NCBI RefSeq assembly: GCF_037042905.1
Contig: NC_087245.1
Span: 27,654,001 to 27,718,000, forward strand
DNA from: Lytechinus pictus
Taxonomy: Eukaryota
Reading direction: 5' to 3'
Length of the DNA stretch: 64,000 nucleotides
This document shows, one piece after another, positions 18,938 through 51,680 of this stretch. A model generated the notes under the pieces. The model was given only the letters and a program-made list of their open reading frames with translations. It was not told the DNA's origin and did not search any database. The position numbers were made by a program, and so were the translations under genes. Each line of letters opens with the position of its first letter. Position 1 is the stretch's first letter.

Positions 18938-21900
18938 GCGCCCCCTGGTTCGAACATCAATTCAGCACCCCGCCCTAGTTCGAACACCATTCCGGTGCCT
19001 CCCTCGTTCGAGCATTGATAAAGCCCCCTCCCCTAGTTCGAACATCAATCCAGCGCCCCCCCTAGTTTGAACATCAATTCGGTGCCTCCTAGTTCAAACA
19101 TCAATCCGGCGCCCCTAGTTCGAACATCGATTCCGCGCCCTCTAGTTCGAACATCAATTTGGCGCCCTCCCCCCACTTCAAGCATAAATTTTGGGGCCCC
19201 TACTTCAAACATCAATCCGGCGCCCCCTAGTTCGAGCATCGATTCGCCCCCCCCCCTAGCAAAAATTTTACGCACACTAAATCGAACATCAATTTGGCAC
19301 CCCCTAGTTTGAACGTTAATTCGGCACCCCCCCCCCCCCGTTGCGAACATAAATTCGGCACCCCCTAATTCGAACATCGATTCGGCGCCCCCTCTTAGTT
19401 CGAACATCAATTCTGCGCCCCCTAATCGAATATCAATTCGGTGCCCCCTAGTTAGAACATCGATTCGGCGCCCTTCTAGCTCGAACATCAATTTCGCGCC
19501 CCCCTAGTTTGAACCTCAATTCGGCGCCCCTTTGTTCGAACATTAGTTTGGCGCCCCCTAGTTCTAGTTTAATTCAATTCAATTCTTTTTCAAACATCAA
19601 TTCGGCGCCCCATAGTTCGAACATAAATTTGGCGCCCCTACTTCGAACATCAATTCAGCACCCCTCCCTAGTTCGAACACCAGTTCGGTGCCTCCCTACT
19701 TCGTACATTGATTAAGCCCCCTCCCCCCCCCCCCCCCCTAGTTCGAACATCAATTCAGCGTCCCCCTAGCTTGAACACCAATTAGGCGCTCCCTGGTTCA
19801 AACATAAATTCGGTGCCCCCTATATAGTTCAAAAAACAATCCGGCACCCCCTGCTTCAACATCAATCCGGCACCCCCTGCTTCAACATCAATCCGGCACC
19901 CCCTACTTCAAACATCAATCGGCGCCCCCTAGGCCGAACATCAATTCGGCGCCCCCTTCTAGTTCGAACATCAATTGGTGCCCCCTGTAGTTCGAACATA
20001 ATTTAGGCGCCCCCCACTTCAAACATCAATTTCGAGCCCCTGGTTCGAACATCGATTCGGCGCCCCTTTGTTTGAACATCAATTTGGCGCCCCCCTAATT
20101 CGAACATCGACTCAGAGCCCCCGCCTCGCCCCCTAGTTCGAACATTAATTCTGTACCCCCTAGCTCGAACATAAATTCGATGCCCCCAAGTTCAAACATC
20201 AATCCGGCGCCCCCTAGTTCAAACATCAAACGGCACCCCATAGTTCGAACATAAATTCGGCGCCCCCTTGGCCGAACATCAATTCGGACCCCCCTCCCGA
20301 CCTAGTTGGAACATCAATTCGGTGCCCCCCTTCTAGTTCGAACATCAATTTGGCTCCATCCCCAATTCGGTGTCCCCCGGTTCCCCCCCCCCCCCCGTTG
20401 CGAACATAATTTTGGCGCCCCCCCCATCTTCAAACATCAATTTTGAGCCCCTGGTTCGAACATCGATTCGGCTCCCCCTCGTTTGAATATCAATTTGGCG
20501 CCCCCAAATTCAAACATCGATTCGGAGCCCCCGCCTCGCCCCCGAGTTCGAACATCAATTCTGTACCCCCCTAGTTCGAACATGAATTCGGTGCCCCCAA
20601 GTTCAAACATCAATCCGGCACCCAATAGTTCGAACATAAATTCGGCGCCCCCTAGACCGGACATCAATTCAGACCCCCCCCCCGACCTAGTGGGAACATC
20701 GATTTGGTGTCCCCCTCTAGTTCGAACATCAATTTGGCGCCCCCTCCACTTTAAAAATCAATTTTGCACCCACCTAGATCGAACATCGATTCGGCGCAAC
20801 CTCCGAGTTTGAACATCAATTTTGCGCCCCCTAATTCGAACATCATTTCGGCCCCCCTCGTTCTTACATCTATTCAGCGCCCTTCTAGTTTGAACATTAA
20901 TTTAACTGGCGCCCATCTAGTTCGAACCTCATTTTGGCGCCCCTTTGTTTGAACATCACTTTGACGCCCCTCTAGTTCGAACATCAATTTCGTGCCCCCC
21001 TAGTTCGAACCTCAATATGGCACCCCCTTTGTTCAAACATCAATTCGGAGCCGCGACCTAGTTGGAACATCAATTCGGTGCCCCCCTTCTAGTTCGAACA
21101 TCAATTGACCCCCCTATTTCGATCATCGATCCGGCGCCCCCTAGTTCAAACATCGATTCGGAGCCCCCACCTAGTTGGAACATCAATTCGGTGCCCCCCC
21201 TCTAGTTCAAACATCGATTTGGCTCCCCCCTAGTTCGAACCTCAATTCGGCGCCCCCTTTGTTCGAACATTAGTTTGGACCCCCTAGTTCTAGTTTAATT
21301 CAATTCAATTATATTTCAAACATCAATTCAGCACCCCTCCCTAGTTCGAACACCAGTCCGGTGCCTCACTACTTCGTACATTAATTAAGCCCCCCCCCTA
21401 GTTCGAACACCAATTTGGCGTCCGCTAGTTCGAACATCAATTCAGCGTCCCCCTAGCTTGAACACCAATTAGGCGCTCACTAGTTCAAACATCAATCCGG
21501 CGCCCCCTACTTCAAACATCAATCTGGCGCCCCCTACTTCAAACATCAATCAGCGCCCCATAGTTCGAACATAAATTCGGCGCCCCCTAGGCCGAACATC
21601 AATTCGGCGCCCCCTTCTAGTTCGAACATCAATTGGTGCCCCCTGTAGTTCGAACATAATTTAGGCGCCCCCCCCCCCCCCACTTCAAACATCAATTTTG
21701 AGCCACTGGTTCGAAGATCGATTCGGCTCCCCCTTGTTTGAACATCAATTTGGCGCCTCCTAATTCGAACATCCATTCGGAGCCCCCGCCTCGCCCCCTA
21801 GTTCGAACATCAATTCTGAATCCCCCTAGTTCGAACATGAATTCGGTGCCCCCTAATTCAAACATCGATCCCCCCGACCTAGTAGGAACATCAATTCGGT

Positions 21901-24900
21901 GCTCCCCATCTAGTTCGAACATCAATTTGGCGCCCCCCCCAACTTCAAACATCAATTTTGCACCCACCTAGTTCGAACTTAAATTCGGTGTACCCGGTTC
22001 CCCCCCCCCCCCGTTGTAAACATAATTTTGGCGCCCCCCCCCCCCACTTCAAACATCAATTTTGAGCCCCTGGTTCGAACATCGATTCGGCTCCCCCTTG
22101 TTTGAACATCAATTTGGCGCCCCCTAATACAAACATCGATTCGGAGCCCCCACCTCGCCCCCGAGTTCGAACATGAATTCTGTACCCCCCCTAGTTCGAA
22201 CATGAATTCGGTGCCCCCAAGTCCAAACATCATTCCCGCGCCCCCTAGTTCAAACATCAATCGGCACCCAATAGTTCGAACATAAATTCGGCGCCCCCTA
22301 GGCCGAACATCAATTCGGCGCCCCCTTCTAGTTCGAACATCAATTGGTGCCCCCTGTAGTTCGAACATAATTTTGGCGCCATCCCACTTCAAACATCAAT
22401 TTCGAGCCCCTGGTTTGAACTTCGATTCGGCGCCCCTTTGTTTGAACATCAATTTGGTGCCCCCCTAATTCGAACATCGACTCAGAGCCCCCGCCTCGCC
22501 CCCTAGTTCGAACATCAATTCTGTACCCCCTAGCTCGAACATGAATTCGGTGCCCCCAAGTTCAAACATCAATCCCCCCGACCTAGTAGGAACATCAATT
22601 CGGTGCTCCCCCCCTAGTTCGAACTTCAATTTGGCGTCCGCTAGTTCGAACATCAATTCAGCGTCCCCCTAGCTTGAACACCAATTAGGCGCTCCCTAGT
22701 TCAAACATCAATTAGGTGCCCCCTAGTTCAAACATCAATTCGGTGCTCACTAGTTCAAACATCAATCCGGCGCCCCCTACTTCAAACATCAATCAGCGCC
22801 CCTTTGTTTGAACATCACTTTGACGCCCCTCTAGTTCGAACATCAATTTCGTGCCCCCCTAGTTCGAACCTCAATATGGCGCCCCCTTTGTTCAAACATC
22901 AATTCGGAGCCGCGACCTAGTTGGAACATCAATTCGGTGCCCCCCTTCTAGTTCGAACAGCAATTGACCCCCCTATTTCGATCATCGATCCGGCGCCCCC
23001 TAGTTCAAACATCGATTCGGAGCCCCCACCTAGTTGGAACATCAATTCGGTGCCCCCCCTCTAGTTCAAACATCGATTTGGCTCCCCCCTAGTTCGAACA
23101 TCAATTCAGCACCCCTCCCTAGTTCGAACACCAGTCCGGTGCCTCACTACTTCGTACATTAATTAAGCCCCCCCCCCCTAGTTCGAACACCAATTTGGCG
23201 TCCGCTAGTTCGAACATCAATTCAGCGTCCCCCTAGCTTGAACACCAATTAGGCGCTCACTAGTTCAAACATCAATCCGGCGCCCCCTACTTCAAACATC
23301 AATCTGGCGCCCCCTACTTCAAACATCAATCAGCGCCCCATAGTTCGAACATAAATTCGGCGCCCCCTAGGCCGAACATCAATTCGGCGCCCCCTTCTAG
23401 TTCGAACATCAATTGGTGCCCCCTGTAGTTCGAACATAATTTAGGCGCCCCCCCCCCCCCCACTTCAAACATCAATTTTGAGCCCCTGGTTCGAACATCG
23501 ATTCGGCTCCCCCTTGTTTGAACATCAATTTGGCGCCCCCTAATACAAACATCGATTCGGAGCCCCCACCTCGCCCCCGAGTTCGAACATGAATTCTGTA
23601 CCCCCCCCCCCCTAGTTCGAACATGAATTCGGTGCCCCCAAGTCCAAACATCATTCCCGCGCCCCCTAGTTCAAACATCAATCGGCACCCAATAGTTCGA
23701 ACATAAATTCGGCGCCCCCTAGGCCGAACATCAATTCGGCGCCCCCTTCTAGTTCGAACATCAATTGGTGCCCCCTGTAGTTCGAACATAATTTTGGCGC
23801 CATCCCACTTCAAACATCAATTTCGAGCCCCTGGTTTGAACTTCGATTCGGCGCCCCTTTGTTTTAACATCAATTTGGTGCCCCCCTAATTCGAACATCG
23901 ACTCAGAGCCCCCGCCTCGCCCCCTAGTTCGAACATCAATTCTGTACCCCCTAGCTCGAACATGAATTCGGTGCCCCCAAGTTCAAACATCAATCCCCCG
24001 ACCTAGTAGGAACATCAATTCGGTGCTCCCCCCCCCCCCTAGTTCGAACTTCAATTTGGCGTCCGCTAGTTCGAACATCAATTCAGCGTCCCCCTAGCTT
24101 GAACACCAATTAGGCGCTCCCTAGTTCAAACATCAATTAGGTGCCCCCTAGTTCAAACATCAATTCGGTGCTCACTAGTTCAAACATCAATCCGGCGCCC
24201 CCTACTTCAAACATCAATCTGGCGCCCCCTACTTCAAACATCAATCAGCGCCCAATAGTTCGAACATAAATTCGGCGCCCCCTAGGCCGAACATCAATTC
24301 GGCGCCCCCTTCTAGTTCGAACATCAATTGGTGCCCCCTGTAGTTCGAACATAATTTAGGCGCCCCCCCCCCCACTTCAAACATCAATTTTGAGCCACTG
24401 GTTCGAACATCGATTCGGCTCCCCCTTGTTTGAACATCAATTTGGCGCCCCCTAATACAAACATCGATTCGGAGCCCCCGCCTCGCCCCCGAGTTCGAAC
24501 ATGAATTCGGTGCCCTCAAGTTCAAACATCATTCCGGCGCCCCCTAGTTCAAACATCAATCGGCACCCAATAGTTTGAACATAAATTCGGCGCCCCCTAG
24601 GCCGACCATCAATTCGGACCCCCCTTCTAGTTCGAACATCAATTGGTGCCCCCTGTAGTTCGAACATAATTTTGGCGCCATCCCACTTCAAACATCAATT
24701 TCGAGCCCCTGGTTCAAACATCGATTCGGCACCCCTTTGTTTGAACATCAGTTTGGTGCCCCCCTAATCCGAACATCGATTCAGAGCCCCCGCCTCGCCC
24801 CCTAGTTCGAACATCAATTCTGTACCCCCTAGCTCAAACATGAATTCGGTGCCCCCAAGTTCAAACATCGATCCGGAGCCCCCTAGTTCAAACATCAATC

Positions 24901-27900
24901 GGCACCCCATAGTTCGAACATCAATTCGGCGCCCCCTAGGCCGAACATCGATTCGAACACCCCCCCCCCAGACCTAGTTGGAACATCACTTCGGTGCCCC
25001 CCTTCTAGTTCGAACATTTATTTGGCGTCAACCCCCCCCCCCACTTCAAACATCAATTTTGCACCCACCTAGTTCGAACTTCAATTCGGTGTCCCCCGGT
25101 TCACCCCCTCCCCCGTTGCGAACATAATTTTGGCGCCCCCCCCCTCTTCAAACATCAATTTTGAGCCCCTGGTTCGAACATCGATTCGGCTCCCCCTTGT
25201 TTGAACATTAATTTGGCGCCCCCTAATTCAAACATCGATTCGTAGCCCCCGCCTTGCCCCCGAGTTCGAACATCAATTCTGTACCCCTAGCCCGAACATC
25301 AACTCGGACCCCCACCCCCCCCCCCCGACCTAGTGGGAACATCAATCTGGTGCCCCCCCCCCCTAGTTCGAACATCGATTCGGCGCAACCTCTGAGTTTG
25401 AACATCAATTTTGCACCCACCTAGTTCGAACTTCAATTCGGTGTCCCCCGGTTCACCCCCCCCCCCGTTGCGAACATAATTTTGGCGCCCTCCCCCCCCC
25501 ACTCTTCGAACATCAATTTTGAGCCCCTGGTTCGAACATCGATTCGGCTCCCCCTTGTTTGAACATGAATTCGGTGCCCCCAAGTTCAAACATCAATCCG
25601 GCACCCAATAGTTCGAACATAAATTTGGCGCCCCCTAGGCCGAACATCAACTCGGACCCCCCCCCCGACCTAGTGGGAACATCAATTTGGTGCCCCCCCC
25701 CCTAGTTCGAACATCGATTCGGCGCAACCTCTGAGTTTGAACATCAATTTTGCACCCTCTAATTCGAATATCATTTCGGCCCCCCTCGTTCTTACATCTA
25801 TTCAGCGCCCTTCTAGTTTGAACATTAATTTAACTGGCGCCCTTTAGTTCAAACATCAATTCGGAGCCCCCTAGTTCAAACATCAATTCGGAGCCGCGAC
25901 CTAGTTGGAACATCAATTCGGCGCCCCCCTTCTAGTTCGAACATCAATTGGCCTCCCTATTTCGAACATCGATCCGGCGCCCCCTAGTTCAAACATCAAT
26001 TCGGAGCCCCCACCTAGTTGGAACATCAATTCGGTGCCCCCCCCCCCCATCTAGTTCGAACATCAATTTGGATCCCCCCTAGTTCGAACCTCAATTTGGG
26101 ACCCCCTTTGTTCGAACATTCGTTTGGACCCCCTAGTTCTAGTTAAATTAAATTCAATTCTATTTCAAACATCAATTCAGCACCCCTCCCTAGTTCGAAC
26201 ACCAGTCCGGTGCCTTCCTGCTTCGTATATTGATTAAGCCCCCCCCCCCCTAGTTCGAACATCAATTTGGCGTCTGCTAGTTCGAACATCAATTCAGCGT
26301 CCCCCTAGCTTGAACACCAATTAGGCGCTCCCTAGTTCAAACATAAATTCAGTGCCCCCTAGTTCAAACATCAATTCGGTGCTCCCTACTTCAAACATCA
26401 ATCTGGTGACCCCTACTTCAAACATCAATCGGCGCCCCATAGTTCGAACATAAATTCAGCGCCCCCTAGGCCGAACATCAATTCGGCGTCCCCTTCTAGT
26501 TCGAACATCAATTGGTGCCCCCTGTAGTTCAAACATAATTTTGGCGCCCCCCCCCCCCCCACTTCAAACATCAATTTTGAGCCCCTGATTCGAACATCGA
26601 TTCGGCTCCCCCTTGTTTGAACATTTATTTGGCGCCCCCTAATTCGAACATCGATTCGGAGCCCCCGCCTCGCCCCCTAGTTCGAACATTAATTCTGTAC
26701 CCCCCTAGTTCGAACATGAATTCGGTGGCCCCTAGTTTAAACATCGATCCCACCCGACCTAGTTGGAACATCAATTCGGTGCCCCCCTTCTAGTTCGAAC
26801 ATCAATTTGGCGCCCCCCCTTCAAATATCAATTTTGCGCCCCCCCTTCAAACATCAATTTTGCGCCCACCTAGTTCGAACTTCAATTCGGTGTCCCCCGG
26901 TTCTCCCCCCCCCCCGTTGCGAACATAATTTTGGCGCCCCCCCCCCGCCCCACTTCAAACACCAATTTTGATCCCTGGTTCGAACATCGATTAGGCTCCC
27001 CCTTGTTTGAACATGAATTCGGTGCCCCCAAGTTCAAACATCAATCCGGCGCCCCCTAGTTCAAACATCAATCGGCACCCAATAGTTCGAACATAAATTC
27101 GGCGCCCCCTAGGCCGAACATCAATTCGGACCCCCCCCCCGACCTATTGGGAACATCAATTTGGTGCCCCCCTCTAGTTCGAACATCAATTTCGTGCCCC
27201 CCTAGTTCGAACCTCAATATGGCGCCCCCTTTGTTCGAACATCAATTTGGCGCCCCCTAGTTCTAGTTTAATTCAATTCAATTCTATTTCAAACATCAAT
27301 TCGGCGCCCCATAGTTCGAACACTAATTTGGCGCCCCTAGTTCGAACATCAATTTAGCACCCCTCCCTAGTTCGAACACCAGTTCGGTGCCTCCCTACTT
27401 CGTACATTGATTAAGCCCCCCCCCCCCTAGTTCGAACATCAATATGCCGTCTGCTTGTTCGAACATCAATTCAGCGTCCCCCTAGCTTGAACACCAATTA
27501 GGCGCTCCCTAGTTCAAACATAAATTCGGTGCCCCCTAGTTCAAACATCAATTCGGTGCTCCCTAGTTCAAACATCAATCCGGCGCCCCCTACTTCAAAC
27601 ATCAATCTGGTGCCCCCTACTTCAAACATCAATCGGCGCCCCATAGTTCGAACATAAATTCGGCGGCCCCTAGGCCGAACATCAATTCGGCGTCCCCTTC
27701 TACTTCGAACATCAATTGGTGCCCCCCCCTTCAAATATCCCACCCGTTGCGAACATAATTTTGGCGCCCCCCCCCCCCACTTCAAACACCAATTTACATC
27801 CCTGGTTCGAACATCGATTAGGCTCCCCCTTGTTTGAACATGAATTCGGTGCCCCCAAGTTCAAACATCAATCCGGCGCCCCCTAGTTCAAACATCAATC

Positions 27901-30900
27901 GGCACCCAATAGTTCGAACATAAATTCGGCGCCCCCTAGGCCGAACATCAATTCGGACCCCCCCCCCCGACCTATTGGGAACATCAATTTGGTGCCCCCC
28001 TCTAGTTCGAACATCAATTTCGTGCCCCCCTAGTTCGAACCTCAATATGGCGCCCCCTTTGTTCGAACATCAATTTGGCGCCACCTAGTTCTAGTTTAAT
28101 TCAATTCAATTCTATTTCAAACATCAATTCGGCGCCCCATAGTTCGAACACTAATTTGGCGCCCCTAGTTCGAACATCAATTTAGCACCCCTCCCTAGTT
28201 CGAACACCAGTTCGGTGCCTCCCTACTTCGTACATTGATTAAGCCCCCCCCCCCCCTAGTTCGAACATCATTTTGGCGTCCGCTAGTTCGAACATCAATT
28301 CAGCGTCCCCCTAGCTTGAACACCAATTAGGCGCTCCCTAGTTCAAACATCAATCCAGCGCCCCCTACTTCAGACATCAATCCGGTGCCCCCTACTTCAA
28401 ACATCAATCTGGCGCCCCATAGTTCGAACATAAATTCGGCGCCCCCTAGGCCGAACATCAATTCGGCGCCCCCTTCTAGTTCGAACATCAATTGGTGCCC
28501 CCTGTAGTTCGAACATAATTTTGGCGCCCCCCCCCCCCCGCACGTCAAGCATCAATTTTGAGCCCCTGGTTCGAACATCGATTCAGCTCCCCCTTGTTTG
28601 AACATCAATTTGGCACCCCCTAATTCGAACATCGATTCGGAGCCCCCGCCTCGCCCCCTAGTTCGAACATCAATTTGGCGCCCTCTCCACTTTAAACATC
28701 AATTTTGCACCCACCTAGATCGAACATCATTTCGGCCCCCCTCGTTCGAACATCTATTCGGCGCCCTTCTAGTTTCAACATTAATTTAACTGGCGCCCAT
28801 CTAGTTCGAACCTCAATTTGGCGCCCCTTTGTTTGAACATCCTTTGACGCCCCCTAGTTCAATCATCGATCCGGCGCCCCCTAGTTCAAACATCAATTTG
28901 GAGCCCTCTAGTTCAAACATCAATTCGGAGCCGCGACCTAGTTGGAACATCAATTTGGCGCCCCCCCCCTTCTAGTTCGAACATCAATTGGCCACTCTAT
29001 TTCAAATATCAATCCGGCGCCCCCTAGTTCAAACATCAATTCGGAGACCCCACCTAGTTGGAACATCAATTCGGTGCCCCACCCCCTCTAATTCGAACAT
29101 CAATTTGGCTACCCCCTAGTTCGAACCTCAATTCGGCGCCCCCTTTGTTCGAACATTAGTTTGGACCCCCTAGTTCTAGTTAAATTCAATTCAATTCTAT
29201 TTCAAACATCAATTCAGCACCCCTCCCTAGTTCGAACACCAGTCCGGTGCCTCCCTGCTTCGTACATTGATTAAGCCCCCCCCCCCCCTAGTTCGAACAT
29301 CAATTTGGCGTCTGCTAGTTCGAACATCAATTCAGCGTCCCCCTAGCTTGAACACCAATTAGGCGCTCCCTAGTTCAAACATAAATTCAGTGCCCCCTAG
29401 TTCAAACATCAATTCGGTGCTCCCTAGTTCAAACATCAATCCGGCGCCCCCTACTTCAAACATCAATCTGGTGACCCCTACTTCAAACATCAATCGGCGC
29501 CCCATAGTTCGAACATAAATTCAGCGCCCCCTAGGCCGAACATCAATTCGGCGTCCCCTTCTAGTTCGAACATCAATTGGTGCCCCCTGTAGTTCGAACA
29601 TAATTTTGGCGCCCCCCCCCCCACTTCAAACATCAATTTTGAGCCCCTGATTCGAACATCGATTCGGCTCCCCCTTGTTTGAACATTTATTTGGCGCCCC
29701 CTAATTCGAACATCGATTCGGAGCCCCCGCCTCGCCCCCTAGTTCGAACATTAATTCTGTACCCCCCTAGTTCGAACATGAATTCGGTGCCCCCTAGTTT
29801 AAACATCGATCCCACCCGACCTAGTTGGAACATCAATTCGGTGCCCCCCTTCTAGTTCGAACATCAATTTGGCGCCCCCCCTTCAAATATCAATTTTGCG
29901 CCCCCCCCCCCTTCAAACATCAATTTTGCGCCCACCTAGTTCGAACTTCAATTCGGTGTCCCCCGGTTCTCCCCCCCCCCCCCGTTGCGAACATAATTTT
30001 GGCGCCCCCCCCCCACCCCACTTCAAACACCAATTTTGATCCCTGGTTCGAACATCGATTAGGCTCCCCCTTGTTTGAACATGAATTCGGTGCCCCCAAG
30101 TTCAAACATCAATCCGGCGCCCCCTAGTTCAAACATCAATCGGCACCCAATAGTTCGAACATAAATTCTGCGCCCCCTAGGCCGAACATCAATTCGGACC
30201 CCCCCCCCCGACCTATTGGGAACATCAATTTGGTGCCCCCCTCTAGTTCGAACATCAATTTCGTGCCCCCCTAGTTCGAACCTCAATATGGCGCCCCCTT
30301 TGTTCGAACATCAATTTGGCGCCCCCTAGTTCTAGTTTAATTCAATTCAATTCTATTTCAAACATCAATTCGGCGCCCCATAGTTCGAACACTAATTTGG
30401 CGCCCCTAGTTCGAACATCAATTTAGCACCCCTCCCTAGTTCGAACACCAGTTCGGTGCCTCCCTACTTCGTACATTGATTAAGCCCCCCCCCCCCTAGT
30501 TCGAACATCAATATGCCGTCTGCTTGTTCGAACATCAATTCAGCGTCCCCCTAGCTTGAACACCAATTAGGCGCTCCCTAGTTCAAACATAAATTCGGTG
30601 CCCCCTAGTTCAAACACCAATTCGGTGCTCCCTAGTTCAAACATCAATCCGGCGCCCCCTACTTCAAACATCAATCTGGTGCCCCCTACTTCAAACATCA
30701 ATCGGCGCCCCATAGTTCGAACATAAATTCGGCGGCCCCTAGGCCGAACATCAATTCGGCGTCCCCTTCTACTTCGAACATCAATTGGTGCCCCCTGTAG
30801 TTCGAACATAATTTTGGCGCCCCCCCACTTCAAACATAAATTTTGAGCCCCTGATTCGAACATCGATTCGGCTCCCCCTTGTTTGAACATTTATTTGGCG

Positions 30901-32125
30901 CCCCCTAATTCGAACATCGATTCGGAGCCCCCGCCTCGCCCCCTAGTTCGAACATGAATTCGGTGCCCCCTAGTTTAAACATCGATCCCACCCGACCTAG
31001 TTGGAACATCAATTCGGTGCCCCCCTTCTAGTTCGAACATCAATTTGGCGCCCTCCCCCCCACTTCAAATATCAATTTTGCGCCCCCCCCCCACTTCAAA
31101 CATCAATTTTGCGCCCACCTAGTTCGAACTTCAATTCGGTGTCCCCCGGTTCTCCCCCCCCCCGTTGCGAACATAATTTTGGCGCCCCCCCCCCACTTCA
31201 AACACCAATTTACATCCCTGGTTCGAACATCGATTAGGCTCCCCCTTGTTTGAACATGAATTCGGTGCCCCCAAGTTCAAACATCAATCCGGCGCCCCCT
31301 AGTTCAAACATCAATCGGCACCCAATAGTTCGAACATAAATTCGGCGCCCCCTAGGCCGAACATCAATTCGGACCCCCCCCCGACCTATTGGGAACATCA
31401 ATTTGGTGCCCCCCTCTAGTTCGAACATCAATTTCGTGCCCCCCTAGTTCGAACCTCAATATGGCGCCCCCTTTGTTCGAACATCAATTTGGCGCCCCCT
31501 AGTTCTAGTTTAATTCAATTCAATTCTATTTCAAACATCAATTCGGCGCCCCATAGTTCGAACACTAATTTGGCGCCCCTAGTTCGAACATCAATTTAGC
31601 ACCCCTCCCTAGTTCGAACACCAGTTCGGTGCCTCCCTACTTCGTACATTGATTAAGCCTCCCCCCCCCCTAGTTCGAACATCAATTTGGCGTCCAATAG
31701 TTCGAACATCAATACAGCGTCCCCCTAGCTTGAACACCAATTAGGCGCTCCCTAGTTCAAATATCAATCCGGCGCCCCCTACTTCAAACATCAATCCGGC
31801 GCCCCCTAGTTCAAACATCAATCGGCACCCCATAGTTCGAACATAAATTCGGCGCCCCCTAGGCCGAACATCAATTCGGCGCCCCTTCTAGTTCGAACAT
31901 CAATTGGTGCCCCCTGTAGTTCGAACATAATTTTGGTGCCCCCCCCCCTGCACTTCAAGCATCAATTTTGAGCCCATGGATCGAACATCGATTCAGCTCC
32001 CCCTTGTTTGAACATCAATTTGGCGCCCCCTAATTCAAACATCAATTCGGAGCCGCCTGACCTCGCCCCCGAGTTCGAACATCAATTCTGTACCCCCCTA
32101 GTTCGAACATCAATTGGTGCCCCCT
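18938..32125. repeat. ~13.2-kb tandem array of a ~30-bp minisatellite (consensus ~CTAGTTCGAACATCAATTCGGCGCCCCC) with kb-scale higher-order duplications
   Basis: Continuous variant monomers, roughly 430 by length/30. Diagnostic variants recur, e.g. ttctagtttaattcaattcaatt and cgtacattgattaagcccc. Identical spurious ORFs at 27818-28045 and 30059-30286. Confidence 0.97.
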
Positions 32126-34565: not shown

Positions 34566-35959
34566 TACATATATTAGTATATTATAAATTTACATATATA
34601 GGCAGTTATTTTAAACGAGTTCTAAATGTTTTTTCTCATATTGCTAAGCATAATTAATTGGACATTGTATTTCTTAGAAGTGTAGGTGTGTCATAGATAA
34701 TGCATTCACGGCAAAGCTTTATTTTCGCGCATGTATTCAGCAAACTAATGAATGTCATCTGTCCACTTGTATATTCGTTTGATTTTTTTTTTATTATATC
34801 AAATTATATTGATTACATTTGTTCCCCGAAAATTGAATAAAACATGATTGACTACTGCTTTTATCAAAAGCATCGTTATTGCTGAAATTCGATATGTAAT
34901 AATGAGTCTTTTCGAAATAAGAAATAATTATTATTTCATGTAATGAAATATTTATAAATTCATTAATTAAATAAGAAGAAGAAAAAGTAGGGACACGAAC
35001 GGAAGACCCATTCAGATGTGTCATTCTATATTTTATGTTTGTAAGAGTATTGTAAGCTTCTGCCCGAGAGATTAATTCCTTTGACCATGGACCTAGTAGG
35101 TCCATGCTGTGACTGAAGAGCCTTTCGAGCCCCTGTCCCTGAAATGTTTATTCCTTGTTTAAAGTAATACATAAAAAGACAAATGAAAAGCATTGAAATT
35201 TCATCAAAATTGTACTAGGAATAAAAAAAAATTATTAGGTTTTACCATTATTTTCGTTGAAATTATGAATTATTAATAATGACGACATAAATCTATTTTT
35301 CACAAAATATTGCTTAACTTAAAGTTTAATTACTTTGTTATTGATATCAGATTTTGATGAAATTTTAAGCTTTTTCGTAATTAATTTTACTTAATTTACT
35401 TATTTATTAATTTCAGCCCGGTGTGTATCCCTTTTAAAGCTGTAGGCTAACAGATCGTATAGTCAAATTGTTTTTCAAGTATTTCAAAGAATGTCAGGGA
35501 GATGGTTTCCTGTGAATGATGAGCCTACTGGGCCAGTCCCTTAAACTGTAGGAGAACGTTCCGTTCTCCTACAGTTTAAGGGGCGTTCCGCCCAGTCAGA
35601 TTGTATTTTTTTTTAAGTATTTGTAATAATATTGTTAATAAATTATTTCTGTCTGGGAGATGGTGTCCTTCCTGTGAATGATCAGCCTACTGGGCCAGCC
35701 CCTTAAACTGTAGGAGAACGGAATGCCTAGTCAGATTGTATTTCCCCCCCCCCCCCCCGTTTTTTTTTTTTTTTAATAATTTTTTTGTAAGAATATTGTT
35801 AATTTCTGTCTGGGAGATGGTTTCCTGTGAATGATGAGCCTACTGGGCTAGCCCCTTAAAGTGTAGGAGAACGGAACGCCCAGTCAGATTATGTTTAAAT
35901 TATATGTATTTATATTTTTTTAAATTAATTTCTGTCTTCGAGATGATGTCTTATGAATA

Positions 35960-37052
35960 ATGAACTTCCTCAAATTAAATGTTTCTAAAACTGAATTCAT
36001 TGTACTATGTCGGAAAAACCAATTAAATGAAAATCTATCCAACGTAAAACTCAATGTATGTGATAATGAAATTGCACTATCCTCTAAAGTTAAGAATCTT
36101 GGCATATGTTTTGACTCGTGCTTTACACTCTCATCTCATGTCAGTAATACTGTACGTACCTGTAATTTCCATCTTAAGAATCTGTGGCGCATTAGAAGAT
36201 TTATTAATGAAAAAAATTGCCATCATGCAGTTTACTTTCTCGACTTGACTATTGTAACAGTCTCTTTTCAGTTCTTTGTGTTAAAGATCAGAAAAAACTT
36301 AAAAGTGTTCAGAATCGTGCCGCACGTTTAGTGTTTTCAGTTGGTCGCAATGTACAATGTCGATCTCCTTTGATTAGGGAACTCCCATTGGCTCCCTTTT
36401 TCTCAACGTGTCATGTTCAAACTTTGTATGTACATTTATAAATTGGTTAACAGTACCGGTCATTCATATCTTGTAAACACAATTGCTCGTTACACACCTG
36501 CTCGTAATCTACGTTCCCTGAATAATGATACCACCAAACTTGTTAATCCGAGAACAAACTTCTCCATAGCAGAAAAACGTTTTAGTATAGCTGGATCTAG
36601 ACTTTGGAACACACTCCCCTCTACCGTCCGAACAACACCGACCATATCATCTTTCAAACGACAACTCAAGTCATATCTTTTTCCAAATATCTAGTTTTCT
36701 ATTTATTAATATGTATTTGTTTTGATGATTTTTGCTATCACTGTTTGGTTTGACTTGGCTAACCCATCTGGGGCCTGGTGACCTCAAGTGCTATACTAGA
36801 GCTTCTGTGAATGATGTGCTGACCGGGCTTGTCCCTTAAATTGTTGGTGAACGAAGCAGCAAGCAAGAGGCCACCAGGCCTCATCTGGCGCAGTTGAGAG
36901 CACCTATAGTTGATGCAATTTAATGTATATAATTCTATACTTTTTTGTTACTTAAGATTTATATTTATATTTTATTTCTGACAATTGTAAGCGCTGTGAT
37001 ACTTTTCGTGTATAGCGGATATAAATGACCGTTATTATTATTATTGTTATTA
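35960..37052 (+). mobile_element. 5'-truncated, frameshifted L2/Crack-clade LINE (C-terminal ORF2, 3' UTR and (TTA)n tail)
   Basis: Motifs LKLNVSKTEFI, VKNLGICFDS, SRLDYCNSL, LKSVQNRAARL, RFSIAGSRLWNTLP and FKRQLKSYLF across three frames (35960-36694). Terminal tgtaagcgctgtgatac...gtatagcggatataaat followed by (tta)n. Confidence 0.92.
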
Positions 37053-37719
37053 CTGGGCTAGCCCCTAAGATTTATAGGAGAACAGCGCTCCCAGTCACGC
37101 AATTTAGTTTTTATGTTTGTAAAAAAAAAAAATCTGGGAAATTATATCCTATGAATGATGAACAAAATGGGCTAGTTCTTTAGACTGTAGGAGAACTGAA
37201 CACCAAGTCAGATTACTTTTAAATGTAAAGTATTTTAAAGAATATTGCTTAATTTCTGTCTGGGAAATGGGGTCATGTGAATGATTGGCAAACTGGACTA
37301 TACATTTAACGTCTAGGAGAACGGAACGCCCAGTAGGCGTAAAGATTGTACAGTCTAAATATTTTTTCAAGAATGTAATTAATTTCTGTCTGGGAGAAGG
37401 TGTCCTGTGAATGGTGAGCCTACTGGGTTTGTCCGTTAAATGATAGGAGAAGGGAACGCCGCCCAGATCGACATATATATTTTTAAAAAGAATTATTATC
37501 ATTAAGTATTTGTAAGAAAACTGTTAATTTTTGTCTCGTAGGTGGTGTCCTTCGGATTATGAGCCTTCTGGGCTAGACCCTTAAATGGCAGGAGAACAGA
37601 ACACCCAGTCAGACCTTCTTCTTATTATCATTATTTTAAGTAGGCCTATTTGTATACTATTTTGTCTGGTATAGATGTTGTCCTGTGGATTACCAATTGG
37701 CTTAGCCCTATAAGTATTA

Positions 37720-37960
37720 CACTTTAAACAAATATTGAGTAAATTGTAACCAGCATGATGGTAATTATGTGTCCAGCCAAATTTGGGCAGTATTTTACCC
37801 AGTACAGGAAGCATATTGTCCACTGAGGTAAAAAAAAAAAAAAAAGCAGCAATTACGTTAGAATGGGCAAAATTTTTATCACACTGGATAAAAATGCCCA
37901 ATGTTGGTTGGAAATATAATTACCCTCACGGAGCATTTTTTCCCAATATTTTTTAGAGTG
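37720..37960. mobile_element. MITE with CACT...AGTG termini, TA-flanked, inserted in a hairpin-motif copy
   Basis: TA|CACTTTAAACAAATATTG ... CAATATTTTTTAGAGTG|TA. The interrupted motif resumes as taggaaaaaggaacgccc. Confidence 0.7.
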
Positions 37961-38072
37961 TATAGGAAAAAGGAACGCCCATCAATCAGATAATATTTCT
38001 TTATTTTTGTCTGTAAGAATTTTGTTATTTTTCGTCTGGGAGATGTCCGATAAAACAGGAACCTACAGGGCT

Positions 38073-38212
38073 TTGGGTATTCCAGGTTGAAATTGATACG
38101 ACAGTGAAAATTTCATCAAAATGAGACAAGGAGTAAATGAAGTTTTTAATTTAGCAAAAATTTGGTGGAGCCCATGCGTGTCTTGCGCAAGGTGATGATG
38201 CATCTTCCCACT

Positions 38213-38250
<38 letters not shown>

Positions 38251-38630
38251 ATATTGAAAAAAAAAAACAGGATTAATTTACTGCGTTGATTAGTGTGAAA
38301 ATGTTATTGCTAAAATTTCATTTGGACCAAGTGGAATATGAAGTGCATGTGGTCATGATTTCATTTTTTTTGTTTCATATAATTGAATAATTATGAATTT
38401 ATTAAATAAGATGGAAAGTAGGGACCCGACATCATCGACACACCTTATGCATATCAATCGTGTTAATACATGTAGCTCCATGAATATATTTTCTCCCAAA
38501 TATTGCTAATCTTTTTAATTTAATAACTTTGTTGTTGTTATCAGATATTGTTGAAATTATAGCGTTTTTCTTCTTGATTGATTTTACTTTATTTATTATT
38601 TTATCTTCAGCCCGAAAGAGACCCCTTTAA
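38073..38630. mobile_element. Degenerate Kolobok-like element inserted in a hairpin-motif copy (related remnant at ~35140-35437)
   Basis: gggtattccaggttgaaatt... left end and cttcagcccgaaagagacccct|ttaa right end. Shares internal sequence (tttcatcaaaat, aaaatattgct, atcagat.ttg.tgaaatt) with 35140-35437. Confidence 0.55.
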
Positions 38631-40514
38631 CCTAGCTGTAGGCGAACAGGGGCCCGTTTCATAAAGAATTGTTGTAACTTTGCCCTTATGACAATTAACT
38701 ACCATGTTAACAGGGCTCAGCGGTCAATCAAAATCAAAACTTCCATCACGGTTGCCATAATGGCAATGTTACCATACTTGTAAAACTCTTTATGATCGTA
38801 ATTAGTGAAATAATTGTCAAAGTATTTATAAGGATGTAATAAACATCTGTCTGCAAGATGGTGACATGTAAAAGATCTGCCTACTGGGCTAGCCCTTTAA
38901 GTTGTAGGAGAATAAATCGCCCAATCCGATGTTTGTTTTAATTTAATTATTCTGTCTGTGAGATTATGTCCAGCAAGCATGTTGGCATGGTTTTGGGAAT
39001 ATTAATTGTGTGTATTGTGGTGGAGAGTCAGTGCACATAGATTTGCTTTAGTTATTCACAAATTCTCCCTTATGATCATGATGCCATTAGTAGTAAAAGA
39101 AATCTTGCCCGAGCAGTGGGGACAAGAGAGCAATATATTGAGCTGATTTTTTTTTTGGGCGGTGGCACCCCACATCGAGGGTTATGTATAGTATACGGAG
39201 TACATAGAAATGCCCATAATTATCATCTATCGCATTTGGTCGTGACAGTAAAGACCTGCATTTTATGGCTGTTTTAATGGTTTTAATTTTAAACTGTGGT
39301 TGCAATCATGGGCTGAACGTGCACATTAGAGCGAGCGAGGCGAGCTAGTAAATTAGTTGGAAGACTGAATGGTGTCCAAACCGTGTTGCTTTTTCTTAAC
39401 CCCCCCCCCCAAAAAAAAAAAAAAAAAATCAACAGTCGCAAATATATTCCATGAAAACTAAATTTCTTGGGTTGATACAGGAGATATGATAATGCAAGAT
39501 GTTATCATACTCTAGGAATCAGACCACAATAAATAAACTCCCTGAAATGAATAAAATAGCTCATTGATGCAAATGAAATGGAAAATATTGCTGAAAGGGA
39601 TGAGTTTGAACAGTCATTATGATTATATTCACAGATGGCGCACTATTCAAAATTGTAAACAAAAGTTCCTTCATCACATTTTCAATACTTATTTTTAGGT
39701 GTCTTGCTAATATACACGTTAATTTAAGTCTCATTTTAATAAAATTGGCAAATCATAAAGTTATGAGGTATAATATTGTTCCTGTCTTTTAGTAATTTGA
39801 TCAACGTCAACAGTCAGTGGCATAATATGTCAAGCATTTTGAGGGGGCCAGAAATGCATGGTGTATGGGGCAACATTTCAAGAATTATTCAGATACTAAT
39901 ATCATATTTCATCCCCCTCCATTTTTATTGGTTGTTAGAATTTCGGGGGTCTGTGTCCCTGGACCCGGCCCCATCTGTAAGTAAGGATCATTTTTATTCA
40001 ATTGTATATTTTCACTTGAGGATTCCTCAATAGGGCCTATATAGTTTAATTCTTATTGTCTTTTCGAGTTTCAAGATTAACTGTATATATCAGGAGTATC
40101 CCAACGGTGGGAGCCCTCTGTACGTCTACACCGGATGGACAGGACGATGTCTGGAATGTGTCACAAGGGACAGGATCCGGCAACCTGTAAATACCTTAGT
40201 CTTAATTTTCATAATGACATTAATAAGAAGAAAACACGAAAAATATACTTTGAAAAAGGGGGAGAGAGTAAATCGGATTTCGAGCGCCGGCGGCCACATC
40301 GAGGAAAAGGAAAGGAAAGAAGGAGACAGCATAAACCAGCAATGAAACTGGACATTTTTTTAATAGGACATTGTCATTAATGATAAATTAGCCTTAATTG
40401 GTTTGACATGATCAGGTTAATATTTAGATGCATATTTATCTTTTTCTTGATTAAATAATAGTATACCCACAGTTTGACCATAAGCCTATTTTGCATGAAG
40501 CTGACCTCAACTTC

Positions 40515-46944: not shown

Positions 46945-49900
46945 ATTAGGACATGCTTTTAAATTGTTTTGAGGGGCGAACGAGTGAAAATATATTTTGT
47001 ATACCTTTCGTTATGAACTCCCGTTCTCCATGACGAAATATAATTGACGAAAGGAAAGTAAAACAGAAAAGAAGTCACAAACATCTCAGAATAGTTTGCG
47101 ATCTATCAGGACATGTTTTAAAATTGATTTTAGGTGTCAACAAGTTAAAATATATTTGATATACCTTTCGTTGTGATCCCTTGTTCTCCGTTAAGAAATA
47201 TTAAATACGTCTTTTCTCGACGATGTTGGAAACGTAAATAAAACAGAATAGAAGTCACAAACATCTCAGATGGGTGTGCGATCTATCACAACATGTTTTA
47301 AAGCTGTTTTTAGGGGTCAACAAGTTAAAATAGATTTGATATACCTTCCGTTATTATCCCCTGTTCTCCGTAAAGAAATATTAAAGATGCATTTTCTCGA
47401 CAAAGTTGGAAACGTCGATAAAACAAAATAGAAGTTGGTAGCATCTCATATTTATTGGTGATACATATTTTTCGAGGGGTCAACAAGTTAAAATATATTT
47501 GATATACCTTTCGTTTTGATCCCTTGTTGTCCGTTAAAAATATTAAATACGTCTTTTCTCGACGATGTTGGAAACGTAAATAAAACAGAATAGAAGTCAC
47601 AAACATCTCAGATGGGTGTGCGATCTATCAGGACATGTTTTAAAATTGTTTTTAGGTGTCAACAAGTTAAATTATATTTGATATACCTTTCGTTGTGATC
47701 CCTTGTTCTCCGTTAAGAAATATTAAATACGTCTTTTCTCGACGATGTTGGAAACGTAGATAAAACAAAATAGAAGTCACAAACATCTCAGATGGGTGTG
47801 CGATCTATCAGGACATGTTTTAAAATTGTTTTTAGGTGTCAACAAGTTAAAATAGATTTGATATACCTTTCGTTATGATCCCTTGTTCTCCGTTAAGAAA
47901 TATTAAATACGTCTTTTCTCGACGATGTTGGAAACGTAAATAAAACAGAATAGAAGTCACAAACATCTCAAATTGGTGTGCGATCTATCAGGACATGTTT
48001 TAAAATTGTTTTTAGGTGTCAACAAGTTAAATTATATTTGATATACCTTTCGTTGTGATCCCTTGTTCTCCGTTAAGAGATATTAAATGCGTCTTTTCTC
48101 GACGATGTTGGAAACGTAGATAAAACAAAATAGAAGTCACAAACATCTCAGATGGGTGTGCGATCTATCAGGACATGTTTTAAAATTGTTTTTAGATGTC
48201 AACAAGTTAAAATAGATTTGATATACCGTTCGTTATAATCCCTTGTTCTCCGTTAAGAAATAATAAATACGTCTTTTCTCGACGATGTTGGAAACGTAAA
48301 TAAAACAGAATAGAAGTCACAAACATCTCAAATGGGTGTGCGATCTATCAGGACATGTTTTAAAATTGTTTTTAGGGGTCAACAAGTTAAAATAGAGTTG
48401 ATATACCTTTCGTTATGATCCCCTGTTATCCGTTAAGAAATATTAAAGATGCATTTTCTCGACAAAGTTGGAAACGTAGATAAAACAAAATAAAAGTCAC
48501 AAACATCTCAGATGGGTGTGCGATCTATCAGGGCATGTTTTAAAATTGTTTTTAGGTGTCAACAAGTTAAATTATATTTGATATACCTTTCGTTGTGATC
48601 CCTTGTTCTCCGTTAAGAGATATTAAATGCGTCTTTTCTCGACGATGTTGGAAACGTAGATAAAACAAAATAGAAGTCACAAATATCTCAGATGGGTGTG
48701 CGATCTATCAGGACATGTTTTAAAATTGTTTTTAGGGGTCAACAAGTTAAAATAGAGTTGATATACCTTTCGTTATGATCCCCTGTTATCCGTTAAGAAA
48801 TATTAAAGATGCATTTTCTCGACAAAGTTGGAAACGTAGATAAAACAAAATAAAAGTCACAAACATCTCAGATGGGTGTGCGATCTATCAGGGCATGTTT
48901 TAAAATTGTTTTTAGGTGTCAACAAGTTAAATTATATTTGATATACCTTTCGTTGTGATCCCTTGTTCTCCGTTAAGAGATATTAAATGCGTCTTTTCTC
49001 GACGATGTTGGAAACGTAGATAAAACAAAATAGAAGTCACAAACATCTCAAATTGGTGTGCGATCTATCAGGACATGTTTTAAAATTGTTTTTAGGTGTC
49101 AACAAGTTAAATTATATTTGATATACCTTTCGTTGTGATCCCTTGTTCTCCGTTAAGAGATATTAAATGCGTCTTTTCTCGACGATGTTGGAAACGTAGA
49201 TAAAACAAAATAGAAGTCACAAACATCTCAGATGGGTGTGCGATCTATCAGGACATGTTTTAAAATTGTTTTTAGGTGTCAACAAGTTAAATTATATTTG
49301 ATATACCTTTCGTTGTGATCCCTTGTTCTCCGTTAAGAGATATTAAATGCGTCTTTTCTCGACGATGTTGGAAACGTAGATAAAACAAAATAGAAGTCAC
49401 AAACATCTCAGATGGGTGTGCGATCTATCAGGACATGTTTTAAAATTGTTTTTAGGGGTCAACAAGTTAAAATAGAGTTGATATACCTTTCGTTATGATC
49501 CCCTGTTATCCGTTAAGAAATATTAAAGATGCATTTTCTCGACAAAGTTGGAAACGTAGATAAAACAAAATAAAAGTCACAAACATCTCAGATGGGTGTG
49601 CGATCTATCAGGACATGTTTTAAAATTGTTTTTAGGTGTCAACAAGTTAAATTATATTTGATATACCTTTCGTTGTGATCCCTTGTTCTCCGTTAAGAGA
49701 TATTAAATGCGTCTTTTCTTGACGATGTTGGAAACGTAAATAAAACAGAATAGAAGTAAAAAACATCTCAGATGGGTGTGCGATCTATCAGGACATGTTT
49801 TAAAATTGTTTTTAGGGGTCAACAAGTTAAAATAGAGTTGATATACCTTTCGTTATGATCCCCTGTTATCCGTTAAGAAATATTAAAGATGCATTTTCTC

Positions 49901-51680
49901 GACAAAGTTGGAAACGTAGATAAAACAAAATAAAAGTCACAAACATCTCAGATGGGTGTGCGATCTATCAGGACATGTTTTAAAATTGTTTTTAGGTGTC
50001 AACAAGTTAAATTATATTTGATATACCTTTCGTTGTGATCCCTTGTTCTCCGTTAAGAGATATTAAATGCGTCTTTTCTCGACGATGTTGGAAACGTAGA
50101 TAAAACAAAATAGAAGTCACAAACATCTCAGATGGGTGTGCGATCTATCAGGACATGTTTTAAAATTGTTTTTAGGTGTCAACAAGTTAAATTATATTTG
50201 ATATACCTTTCGTTGTGATCCCTTGTTCTCCGTTAAGAGATATTAAATGCGTCTTTTCTCGACGATGTTGGAAACGTAGATAAAACAAAATAGAAGTCAC
50301 AAACATCTCAGATGGGTGTGCGATCTATCAGGACATGTTTTAAAATTGTTTTTAGGGGTCAACAAGTTAAAATAGAGTTGATATACCTTTCGTTATGATC
50401 CCCTGTTATCCGTTAAGAAATATTAAAGATGCATTTTCTCGACAAAGTTGGAAACGTAGATAAAACAAAATAAAAGTCACAAACATCTCAGATGGGTGTG
50501 CGATCTATCAGGACATGTTTTAAAATTGTTTTTAGGTGTCAACAAGTTAAATTATATTTGATATACCTTTCGTTGTGATCCCTTGTTCTCCGTTAAGAGA
50601 TATTAAATGCGTCTTTTCTTGACGATGTTGGAAACGTAAATAAAACAGAATAGAAGTAAAAAACATCTCAGATGGGTGTGCGATCTATCAGGACATGTTT
50701 TAAAATTGTTTTTAGGGGTCAACAAGTTAAAATAGAGTTGATATACCTTTCGTTATGATCCCCTGTTATCCGTTAAGAAATATTAAAGATGCATTTTCTC
50801 GACAAAGTTGGAAACGTAGATAAAACAAAATAAAAGTCACAAACATCTCAGATGGGTGTGCGATCTATCAGGACATGTTTTAAAATTGTTTTTAGGTGTC
50901 AACAAGTTAAATTATATTTGATATACCTTTCGTTGTGATCCCTTGTTCTCCGTTAAGAGATATTAAATGCGTCTTTTCTTGACGATGTTGGAAACGTAAA
51001 TAAAACAGAATAGAAGTAAAAAACATCTCAGATGGGTGTGCGATCTATCAGGACATGTTTTAAAATTGTTTTTAGGGGTCAACAAGTTAAAATAGAGTTG
51101 ATATACCTTTCGTTATGATCCCCTGTTATCCGTTAAGAAATATTAAAGATGCATTTTCTCGACAAAGTTGGAAACGTAGATAAAACAAAATAAAAGTCAC
51201 AAACATCTCAGATGGGTGTGCGATCTATCAGGACATGTTTTAAAATTGTTTTTAGGTGTCAACAAGTTAAATTATATTTGATATACCTTTCGTTGTGATC
51301 CCTTGTTCTCCGTTAAGAGATATTAAATGCGTCTTTTCTCGACGATGTTGGAAACGTAGATAAAACAGAATAGAAGTAAAAAACATCTCAGATGGGTGTG
51401 CGATCTATCAGGACATGTTTTAAAAATTGTTTTTAGGGGTCAACAAGACAAAATAGATTTGATATGCCTTTCGTTATGATCCCTTAATTGTTCTCCGTTA
51501 AGAAATATTAAAGATGCATTTTCTCGACAAGTTGGAAACGTAGATAAGACAAAATAGAAGTCAGTTGGTAGCCTTTCATATTTGCGATCTATCAGGACAT
51601 CTTTTAAGATTGTTTGAAGGTGTCAACAGGTTAAAATATATTATATATGCATTTCGTTACGATACCTTGTTTTCCGTAGA
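46945..51680. repeat. 180-bp satellite array, ~26 copies, two main variants
   Basis: Exact 180-bp period from ~47520 to ~51420, with degenerate edge monomers. Confidence 0.97.

Follow-up and report, generated by a model that had tools for sequence, protein, structure and literature searches.

Introduction

Why would one short folded RNA motif occur both in the 3′ UTR of a LINE and in the tandem array into which that LINE has inserted? The question is raised by a 64,000-nucleotide stretch of the Lytechinus pictus genome (hereafter the window), in which an earlier note had pointed to the shared motif and proposed that it acts as an RNA-level structure on the + strand, possibly as a retrotransposon cis-element (for RT recognition, stability or translation) or as a ribozyme. 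Decades after conserved modules were first recognized in retroposon RNAs, hardly any function has been assigned to them. For the present module, natural variants exist, covariation is clear and the two carriers are very unlike each other. Should it cleave, it would be a new ribozyme class from an animal genome; otherwise it would be a portable cis-element selected in both LINEs and a satellite family, the satellite would be spreading via RNA without a hammerhead, and UTR modules would be traded among LINE families. Going beyond the earlier note, we describe the module as a probable laterally mobile cassette and the array as a genome-wide family under constraint.

Results

The Module and Its LINE Copy in the Window

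The module strings, the core as well as both arms of a long enclosing stem, stand where the earlier note had placed them (Table 1). They belong to a LINE copy (35962-37051) that sits within one array unit, in the same orientation as the array. We take this LINE to belong to the L2 clade, an assignment based on sequence motifs and on a tree without named reference elements; its family has the L2-clade features of an endonuclease plus RT frame, an L2-type C-terminus and a tail hairpin with a microsatellite end, and longer relatives in its family (L2-A) contain RT and endonuclease domains (Pfam RVT_1 and Exo_endo_phos). The mismatch at 36781 in the enclosing stem is private to the window copy, most other copies having a pairing base there. 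A covariance model, whose training set included the window copies themselves, finds ten array units, full or partial, between 35504 and 38917 on the strand of the LINE copy, plus the LINE copy itself. In the first array unit its own 3′ half is duplicated in inverted form, giving a perfect hairpin of about 22 bp (35563-35599). The window also holds two satellites, one of 13 kb with 27-bp units and one of 4.6 kb with 180-bp units (18938-32124 and 47059-51677).

Table 1. Features of the module, its host LINE and the surrounding array, in window positions.
Feature	Position	Strand	Remarks
Array units 5′ of the LINE	35492-35961	+	modules 35504-35564, 35666-35726, 35819-35879; fourth interrupted by the LINE insertion
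ORF2 end of L2-type LINE (family L2-A)	35962-36694	+	5′-truncated, frameshifted; stop codon 36692-36694
LINE 3′ UTR	36695-37051	+	contains cassette and tail
Long enclosing stem, 5′ arm	36770-36785	+	common to L2-A and L2-B, differs in arrays
AGA bulge beneath P1	36798-36800	+	kept in both LINE lineages and in 27/27 array consensuses
Module core (~57 nt)	36801-36857	+	in 3′ UTR of L2-type LINE
P1, 5′ strand	36801-36805	+	two-sided changes between lineages at 4/5 pairs
5′ loop strand, 13 nt	36806-36818	+	invariant UGUGA first
P2, 5′ strand	36819-36823	+	
P3 hairpin	36825-36835	+	loop variable, 2-3 nt; one variable bulged base
A-rich bulge, 7 nt	36836-36842	+	conserved UUAAA
P2, 3′ strand	36843-36847	+	
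3′ loop strand, 5 nt	36848-36852	+	conserved GAAC at end
P1, 3′ strand	36853-36857	+	
Long enclosing stem, 3′ arm	36867-36882	+	
Tail: L2-type hairpin and (ATT)n repeat	36985-37051	+	
Decayed array units 3′ of the LINE	37052-38929	+	modules 37045-37083 (partial), 37143, 37269, 37399, 37544, 38860

LINE Carriers

All 30 of the best L2-A copies examined carry the module, the query that selected them itself including it. A fairer sample is the full set of copies, 55 in number, that exactly match a 21-mer lying downstream of the core: 43 of these copies span the entire core, and 12 start inside or just after it. Other copies thus carry the module, and the refuting outcome named in the earlier note, its absence from them, did not arise. 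Among the 12 breaks, an insertion and an internal deletion account for one each and a duplicated event for two, leaving 9 independent truncation points in or right behind the core, all of them different.

A second L2 lineage, L2-B (two subfamilies), also has the module in its 3′ UTR; exact matches to the 5′-side motif of L2-B number 100, partly in tandem and partly outside LINE contexts. The two lineages share only 41-44% identity in ORF2, and over 2.5 kb their DNA similarity is confined to a 115-nt cassette (80%) and 42 nt of the tail (81%). The module lies 150-200 nt upstream of the tail in these LINEs.

Several neighboring arrangements were seen along the way. A near-full-length L2-B copy (L197:3648-5093, − strand) opens its long frame with a hydrophobic leader followed by a 2A-like StopGo motif, and at another locus (L200) an L2-A copy lies beside tyrosine recombinase-like and RNase H-like frames and an RT frame of 561 residues that belongs to a LINE clade further removed. 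On C7, a remnant that presumably represents a Penelope-like RT and endonuclease, judging from its motifs, lies a few kb upstream of a cassette. Tandem L2-A/L2-B 3′ fragments that include the cassette, with periods of 0.8-1.8 kb, occur at G000:C4:13.196-13.206 Mb and C7:13.959-14.006 Mb, with further sites at G000:C10:19.556-19.567 Mb and C11:19.70 Mb; those inspected sit within the 27-bp satellite or a microsatellite.

A Nested Fold Supported by Covariation

The module is laid out as a nested fold of P1, a large internal loop, P2, an A-rich bulge and the P3 hairpin. In an alignment of 19 real copies, related to one another and selected as lineage representatives, 97.0% of the 266 stem cells are paired and 7 of the 14 pairs show two-sided changes (three of the seven depending on single rows), so the compensatory stem changes proposed in the earlier note are indeed there. 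Such changes are present in P1, P2 and P3 alike. After shuffling, none of 500 alignments scored as high on four of five measures and 78 of 500 did so on further pair types, counts that are inflated by kinship among the rows and are not to be taken as a probability; slid controls were 35-50% paired, all below the real alignment. RNAalifold independently recovers P1 and P2 and places P3 off by one base. A pattern based on the loops has 373 matches in the genome vs none for its reversed control. Together, these matches and the pair counts above both shuffled and slid controls argue that the module is not a product of chance.

Fourteen of the stem cells are G-U, which on the opposite strand would be A-C mismatches, and because of them the LINE sense strand is favored; folding z-scores did not tell the strands apart. 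This points to an RNA-level structure that acts on the LINE sense strand, and the + strand structure first suggested for the window is thus borne out by the G-U cells and by two-sided changes in all three helices. Positions 2-3 of the 5′ loop are invariant, and in 19/19 rows they could form pairs with the last bases of the 3′ loop strand. Patterns with other bases at P2 positions 1 or 2 retrieved mutated copies, array type X, one cassette locus (L225) and chance hits, and no family with a different first P2 base.

When single sequences are folded, the probability of P2 is below 0.1 in 10/19 rows, the window copy included, and P2 and P3 are not favored; the fold would therefore have to rely on tertiary contacts or a protein, or to alternate with others. 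In several L2-B rows (L197:1570-1630 on the − strand and its relatives) the predicted best fold consists of two alternative hairpins that exclude P1-P3. By this folding prediction, the alternative hairpins could be a possible switch.

Tandem Arrays and Constraint on the Module

The array in the window is one of a genome-wide repeat family with units of 110-170 bp, for which we counted at least 728 matches, drawn from 40 of 292 candidate regions. Three array types (A, T and X) can be told apart, and the differences between them in P1 and P3 are compensated changes. The array consensuses cover 27 of 28 loci, three from one X array having been left out. Each unit consists of a conserved hairpin of about 85 nt, often with a T run behind it, and a locus-specific spacer. 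No conserved flanks were found among 17 left and 16 right ones (two left pairs being from one locus), scattered common-repeat matches aside; this does not fit a MITE or Helentron with central tandem repeats, whose arrays at different loci would share conserved flanks. The array ends examined, mostly old and decayed, have neither target duplications nor a fixed end phase, and the L2 tail hairpin is absent from the units. A tRNA-headed SINE with a conserved central domain was also rejected: the units have no tRNA head, with 0 tRNA genes in 7 loci.

Sequence comparison shows purifying selection on the module in two L2 lineages and in array founders. Between the consensuses of the two L2-B subfamilies, the core is identical at 62/64 positions, the ORF end at 127/140, the tail at 53/58 and the UTR behind the cassette at 72/115. 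Among 12 T-type arrays the spacers are 0.74 identical (0.70 when shuffled) and the inner module columns, those outside the search pattern, 0.98; among 11 A-type arrays the corresponding values are 0.86 and 0.98. A ratio test of this array constraint gave odds of 0.19, with a p-value that ignores relatedness. Inside arrays the picture is one of decay: across 500 units the module's mutation rate is about 60% of the spacer's, stems are mutated as often as loops, and most units of every array have disruptive changes. The slower module mutation there could reflect ascertainment or selection on the arrays themselves. Selection on array-founding units is the simplest reading of constraint between arrays combined with decay within them.

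Two rival accounts of the arrays meet this evidence directly. One holds them to be neutral satellites, each type having arisen by DNA-level seeding from a donor family that we did not find, with the fold selected in the donors alone. The genome does readily amplify LINE 3′ fragments in tandem within satellites, the cassette also stands in contexts that have no L2 ORF nearby (L113-L118 and L402, with a different 500-nt downstream sequence or within diverged repeats of 1.4-2.7 kb), and mutated units have spread inside arrays, up to the altered UUAAA in the L146 consensus. We nevertheless consider this account quite unlikely: the T-type arrays have held the module at 98% while their spacers drifted to near random, the types differ by compensated P1 and P3 changes, and the array-type rows are clustered, with no dispersed array-type donor among the 100 matches listed of 373.

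The other account, which we regard as slightly less likely still, makes the arrays host genes for a small non-coding RNA, evolving by birth and death as 5S and snRNA clusters do, from which LINEs captured a copy twice. The conserved hairpin with its frequent T run and locus-specific spacers would suit such genes, as would the somewhat slower mutation of the module than of the spacer and the presence of array units in assembled contigs of two further sequencing runs, the RNA origin of one of which is a guess. The loci match no Rfam family, though, no polymerase III boxes were seen by eye and no tRNA genes accompany them; nor would host genes account for the strong constraint in LINE UTRs or for the disrupted state of most units.

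Distribution and Probable Lateral Movement

The module evidence comes from one genome. Among 30 other L2 loci of L. pictus, from about eight families, 0/30 match model R2. The nearest relative of L2-A in the data (L431) resembles it in the tail but lacks the cassette in its short 3′ UTR, and serves as a natural control. In a tree of 18 C-terminal sequences (195 columns), L2-A and L431 group together (100/97), and a clade of L2-A with L2-B is rejected (p-AU 0.001). L2 loci in public contigs gave 0/80 and 0/79 significant matches to model R1 (best E 1.8); 85 of these loci had at least 150 nt past the ORF end, and BLAST found the cassette in none of them among the matches listed. Metagenome contigs held 0 exact matches, and two matches in viral contigs, both within protein-coding frames and with the stems absent, were set aside as chance, a second pattern having 0 matches there.

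The cassette was either gained separately by two LINE lineages or lost many times, and separate gain is the more economical. As the carriers do not form a clade, and as the 30 loci and 159 others have no module, it most likely moved sideways between carriers. The data favor neither an array-to-LINE nor a LINE-to-array direction, which cannot be told apart.

The same distribution bears on the functions first proposed for the module. The case for strict RT recognition loses ground, since L431 does without the module despite its similar tail and so do 30/30 other L2 loci.

Tests of Cleavage and Expression

The module may alternatively be a self-cleaving ribozyme of an undescribed class. In that case array transcripts would cut themselves and the monomers would circularize and be reverse-transcribed into new arrays, in the manner of non-LTR retrozymes, and the two L2 lineages would have captured the module independently, with cleavage slow or held off by an alternative fold there. 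We think this unlikely, though it deserves a serious hearing. Constraint between arrays with decay within them would fit selection on an array-seeding unit, most loop bases are invariant, as they would be in a catalytic core, and the fold predicted for 4/6 L2-B-type rows, as well as for the window copy, breaks up the core, a possible means of silencing a ribozyme.

The LINE data speak against it. A shared truncation point, as a cut site would leave, was absent from the 55 L2-A copies, and given that 43 of them span the core and that the 9 truncation points all differ, the LINE RNA is copied uncut. A cut 150-200 nt before the tail would separate ORF2 from that tail, yet the L2-B core is more conserved than the ORF; with RNA copied through a module that outconserves the coding frame, a constitutive cut in LINEs is unlikely. 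In two poly(A) runs, of each of which about 12% was covered, 205 and 277 reads fell on the LINE part, both strands alike, these reads stemming from other LINE copies and perhaps from another species; at a depth of 7-35x no pile of read ends occurred in the module. Array units had 0 reads in the same two runs, in which monomers or circles would escape poly(A) selection. The ribozyme option of the earlier note therefore gains no support from truncation points or reads.

Discussion

The module is a real, strongly constrained fold that has most likely moved laterally between LINE families and a satellite family, and it is apparently new to the literature: four literal motifs occur in no paper and no description was found by topic, in a search that stopped short of subscription journals, Repbase, figures and supplements.

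The best explanation makes it a cassette of compactly folded RNA that passes from one retroelement RNA to another. As for its role, our leading reading, which we hold tentatively and with somewhat less than even confidence, is that of a non-catalytic cis-element, helpful to retrotransposition and put to use by the arrays. The module would act uncut, as a binding or stability element, a role that would fit both carriers best. RNA that bears it may be more likely to be kept and reverse-transcribed, e.g., because a protein, of the host or of the LINE, binds a transcript without poly(A). The arrays would then be non-autonomous passengers, whose long read-through transcripts, with many modules, would be copied to new sites; new arrays would be seeded only by units with an intact module, and local expansion at the DNA level would afterward multiply intact and broken units alike. 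The weak point of this cis-element reading lies in the arrays: they have no L2 tail, a difficulty for their priming, and no insertion hallmarks were seen at the ends examined.

Comparison With Known RNA Families and Systems

Against Rfam 15, the whole window has 0 matches at the gathering score, and Rfam ribozyme classes at E up to 10 or 5 gave none in 35400-39000, a clean array stretch, an L2-B UTR and four cassette loci, which further counts against a ribozyme. An 11-bit RNase P match in 35400-39000 is a chance hit. No type I hammerhead was found by Rfam in units of the window array or of the clean array stretch, and neither the twister, pistol, hairpin, hatchet, HDV nor hammerhead layout fits by eye.

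Some protein-binding folds were compared by inspection. SECIS elements have a GA core followed by a helix of 11-12 bp, with unpaired adenines at that distance; tandem G-A pairs would be possible in the module, but the helix is absent, the adenines are on the 3′ side and there is no Rfam match. Kink-turns have a 3-nt bulge followed by tandem G-A and A-G pairs, and here one register fits only in rows with A at alignment column 18, the other leaving two extra bases. The 5′ loop starts with what we take to be a UGUNR-like motif, cf. the SRP Alu domain, which is a lead. The upstream pseudoknot domain of plant-virus 3′ UTRs (RF01104) matched a T-type unit at L148:4010-4404 with 15.4 bits vs a gathering score of 39 (E 3.5), a chance match in which 12 nt of the module (A-rich bulge and P2) meet the end of the model; RF01104 is a pseudoknot, whereas covariation in the module supports a nested fold.

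The closest parallel to the arrays is found in the non-LTR retrozymes of metazoans, which are described as short tandem repeats with type I hammerhead units and linear and circular monomers (PMC7229834; PMC7761336). The arrays resemble them in all but the ribozyme class: short repeats at many loci, a structured core, a variable low-complexity spacer, and no promoter or LTR features or conserved flanks, a likeness that counts for a ribozyme. They differ in that the core is not a hammerhead and also occurs in LINE 3′ UTRs, and in that the units fall short of the 150-450 bp given for retrozymes (PMC7229834), which counts against one.

Ribozymes are also described on LINEs, HDV-like in R2, L1Tc and RTE and a truncated twister in RTE (PMC6765202; PMC7761336). 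These too are structured RNAs on non-LTR retrotransposons; however, they are 5′-terminal and release the element from a longer transcript, whereas our module lies in the 3′ UTR and matches neither class.

Stringent LINEs are reported to require a 3′ tail hairpin (PMC3747384). The module is like the tail hairpin of eel UnaL2 in being a structured cis-element of an L2 3′ UTR with compensatory change; that hairpin, however, is terminal and separately present in the LINEs studied here, and the module lies upstream of it, is larger and is absent from most L2 families.

A similar balance of likeness and difference holds for the central domains of SINEs (CORE, V, Deu, Nin and Ceph), of which the V subdomain is described as a conserved stem-loop (PMC5786205; PMC4758252). 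Compared with these by description, the array units have neither tRNA head nor LINE tail and the module resides inside the 3′ UTRs of autonomous LINEs; yet in both cases a conserved, exchangeable module, its role unassigned, is carried by retroposon RNAs.
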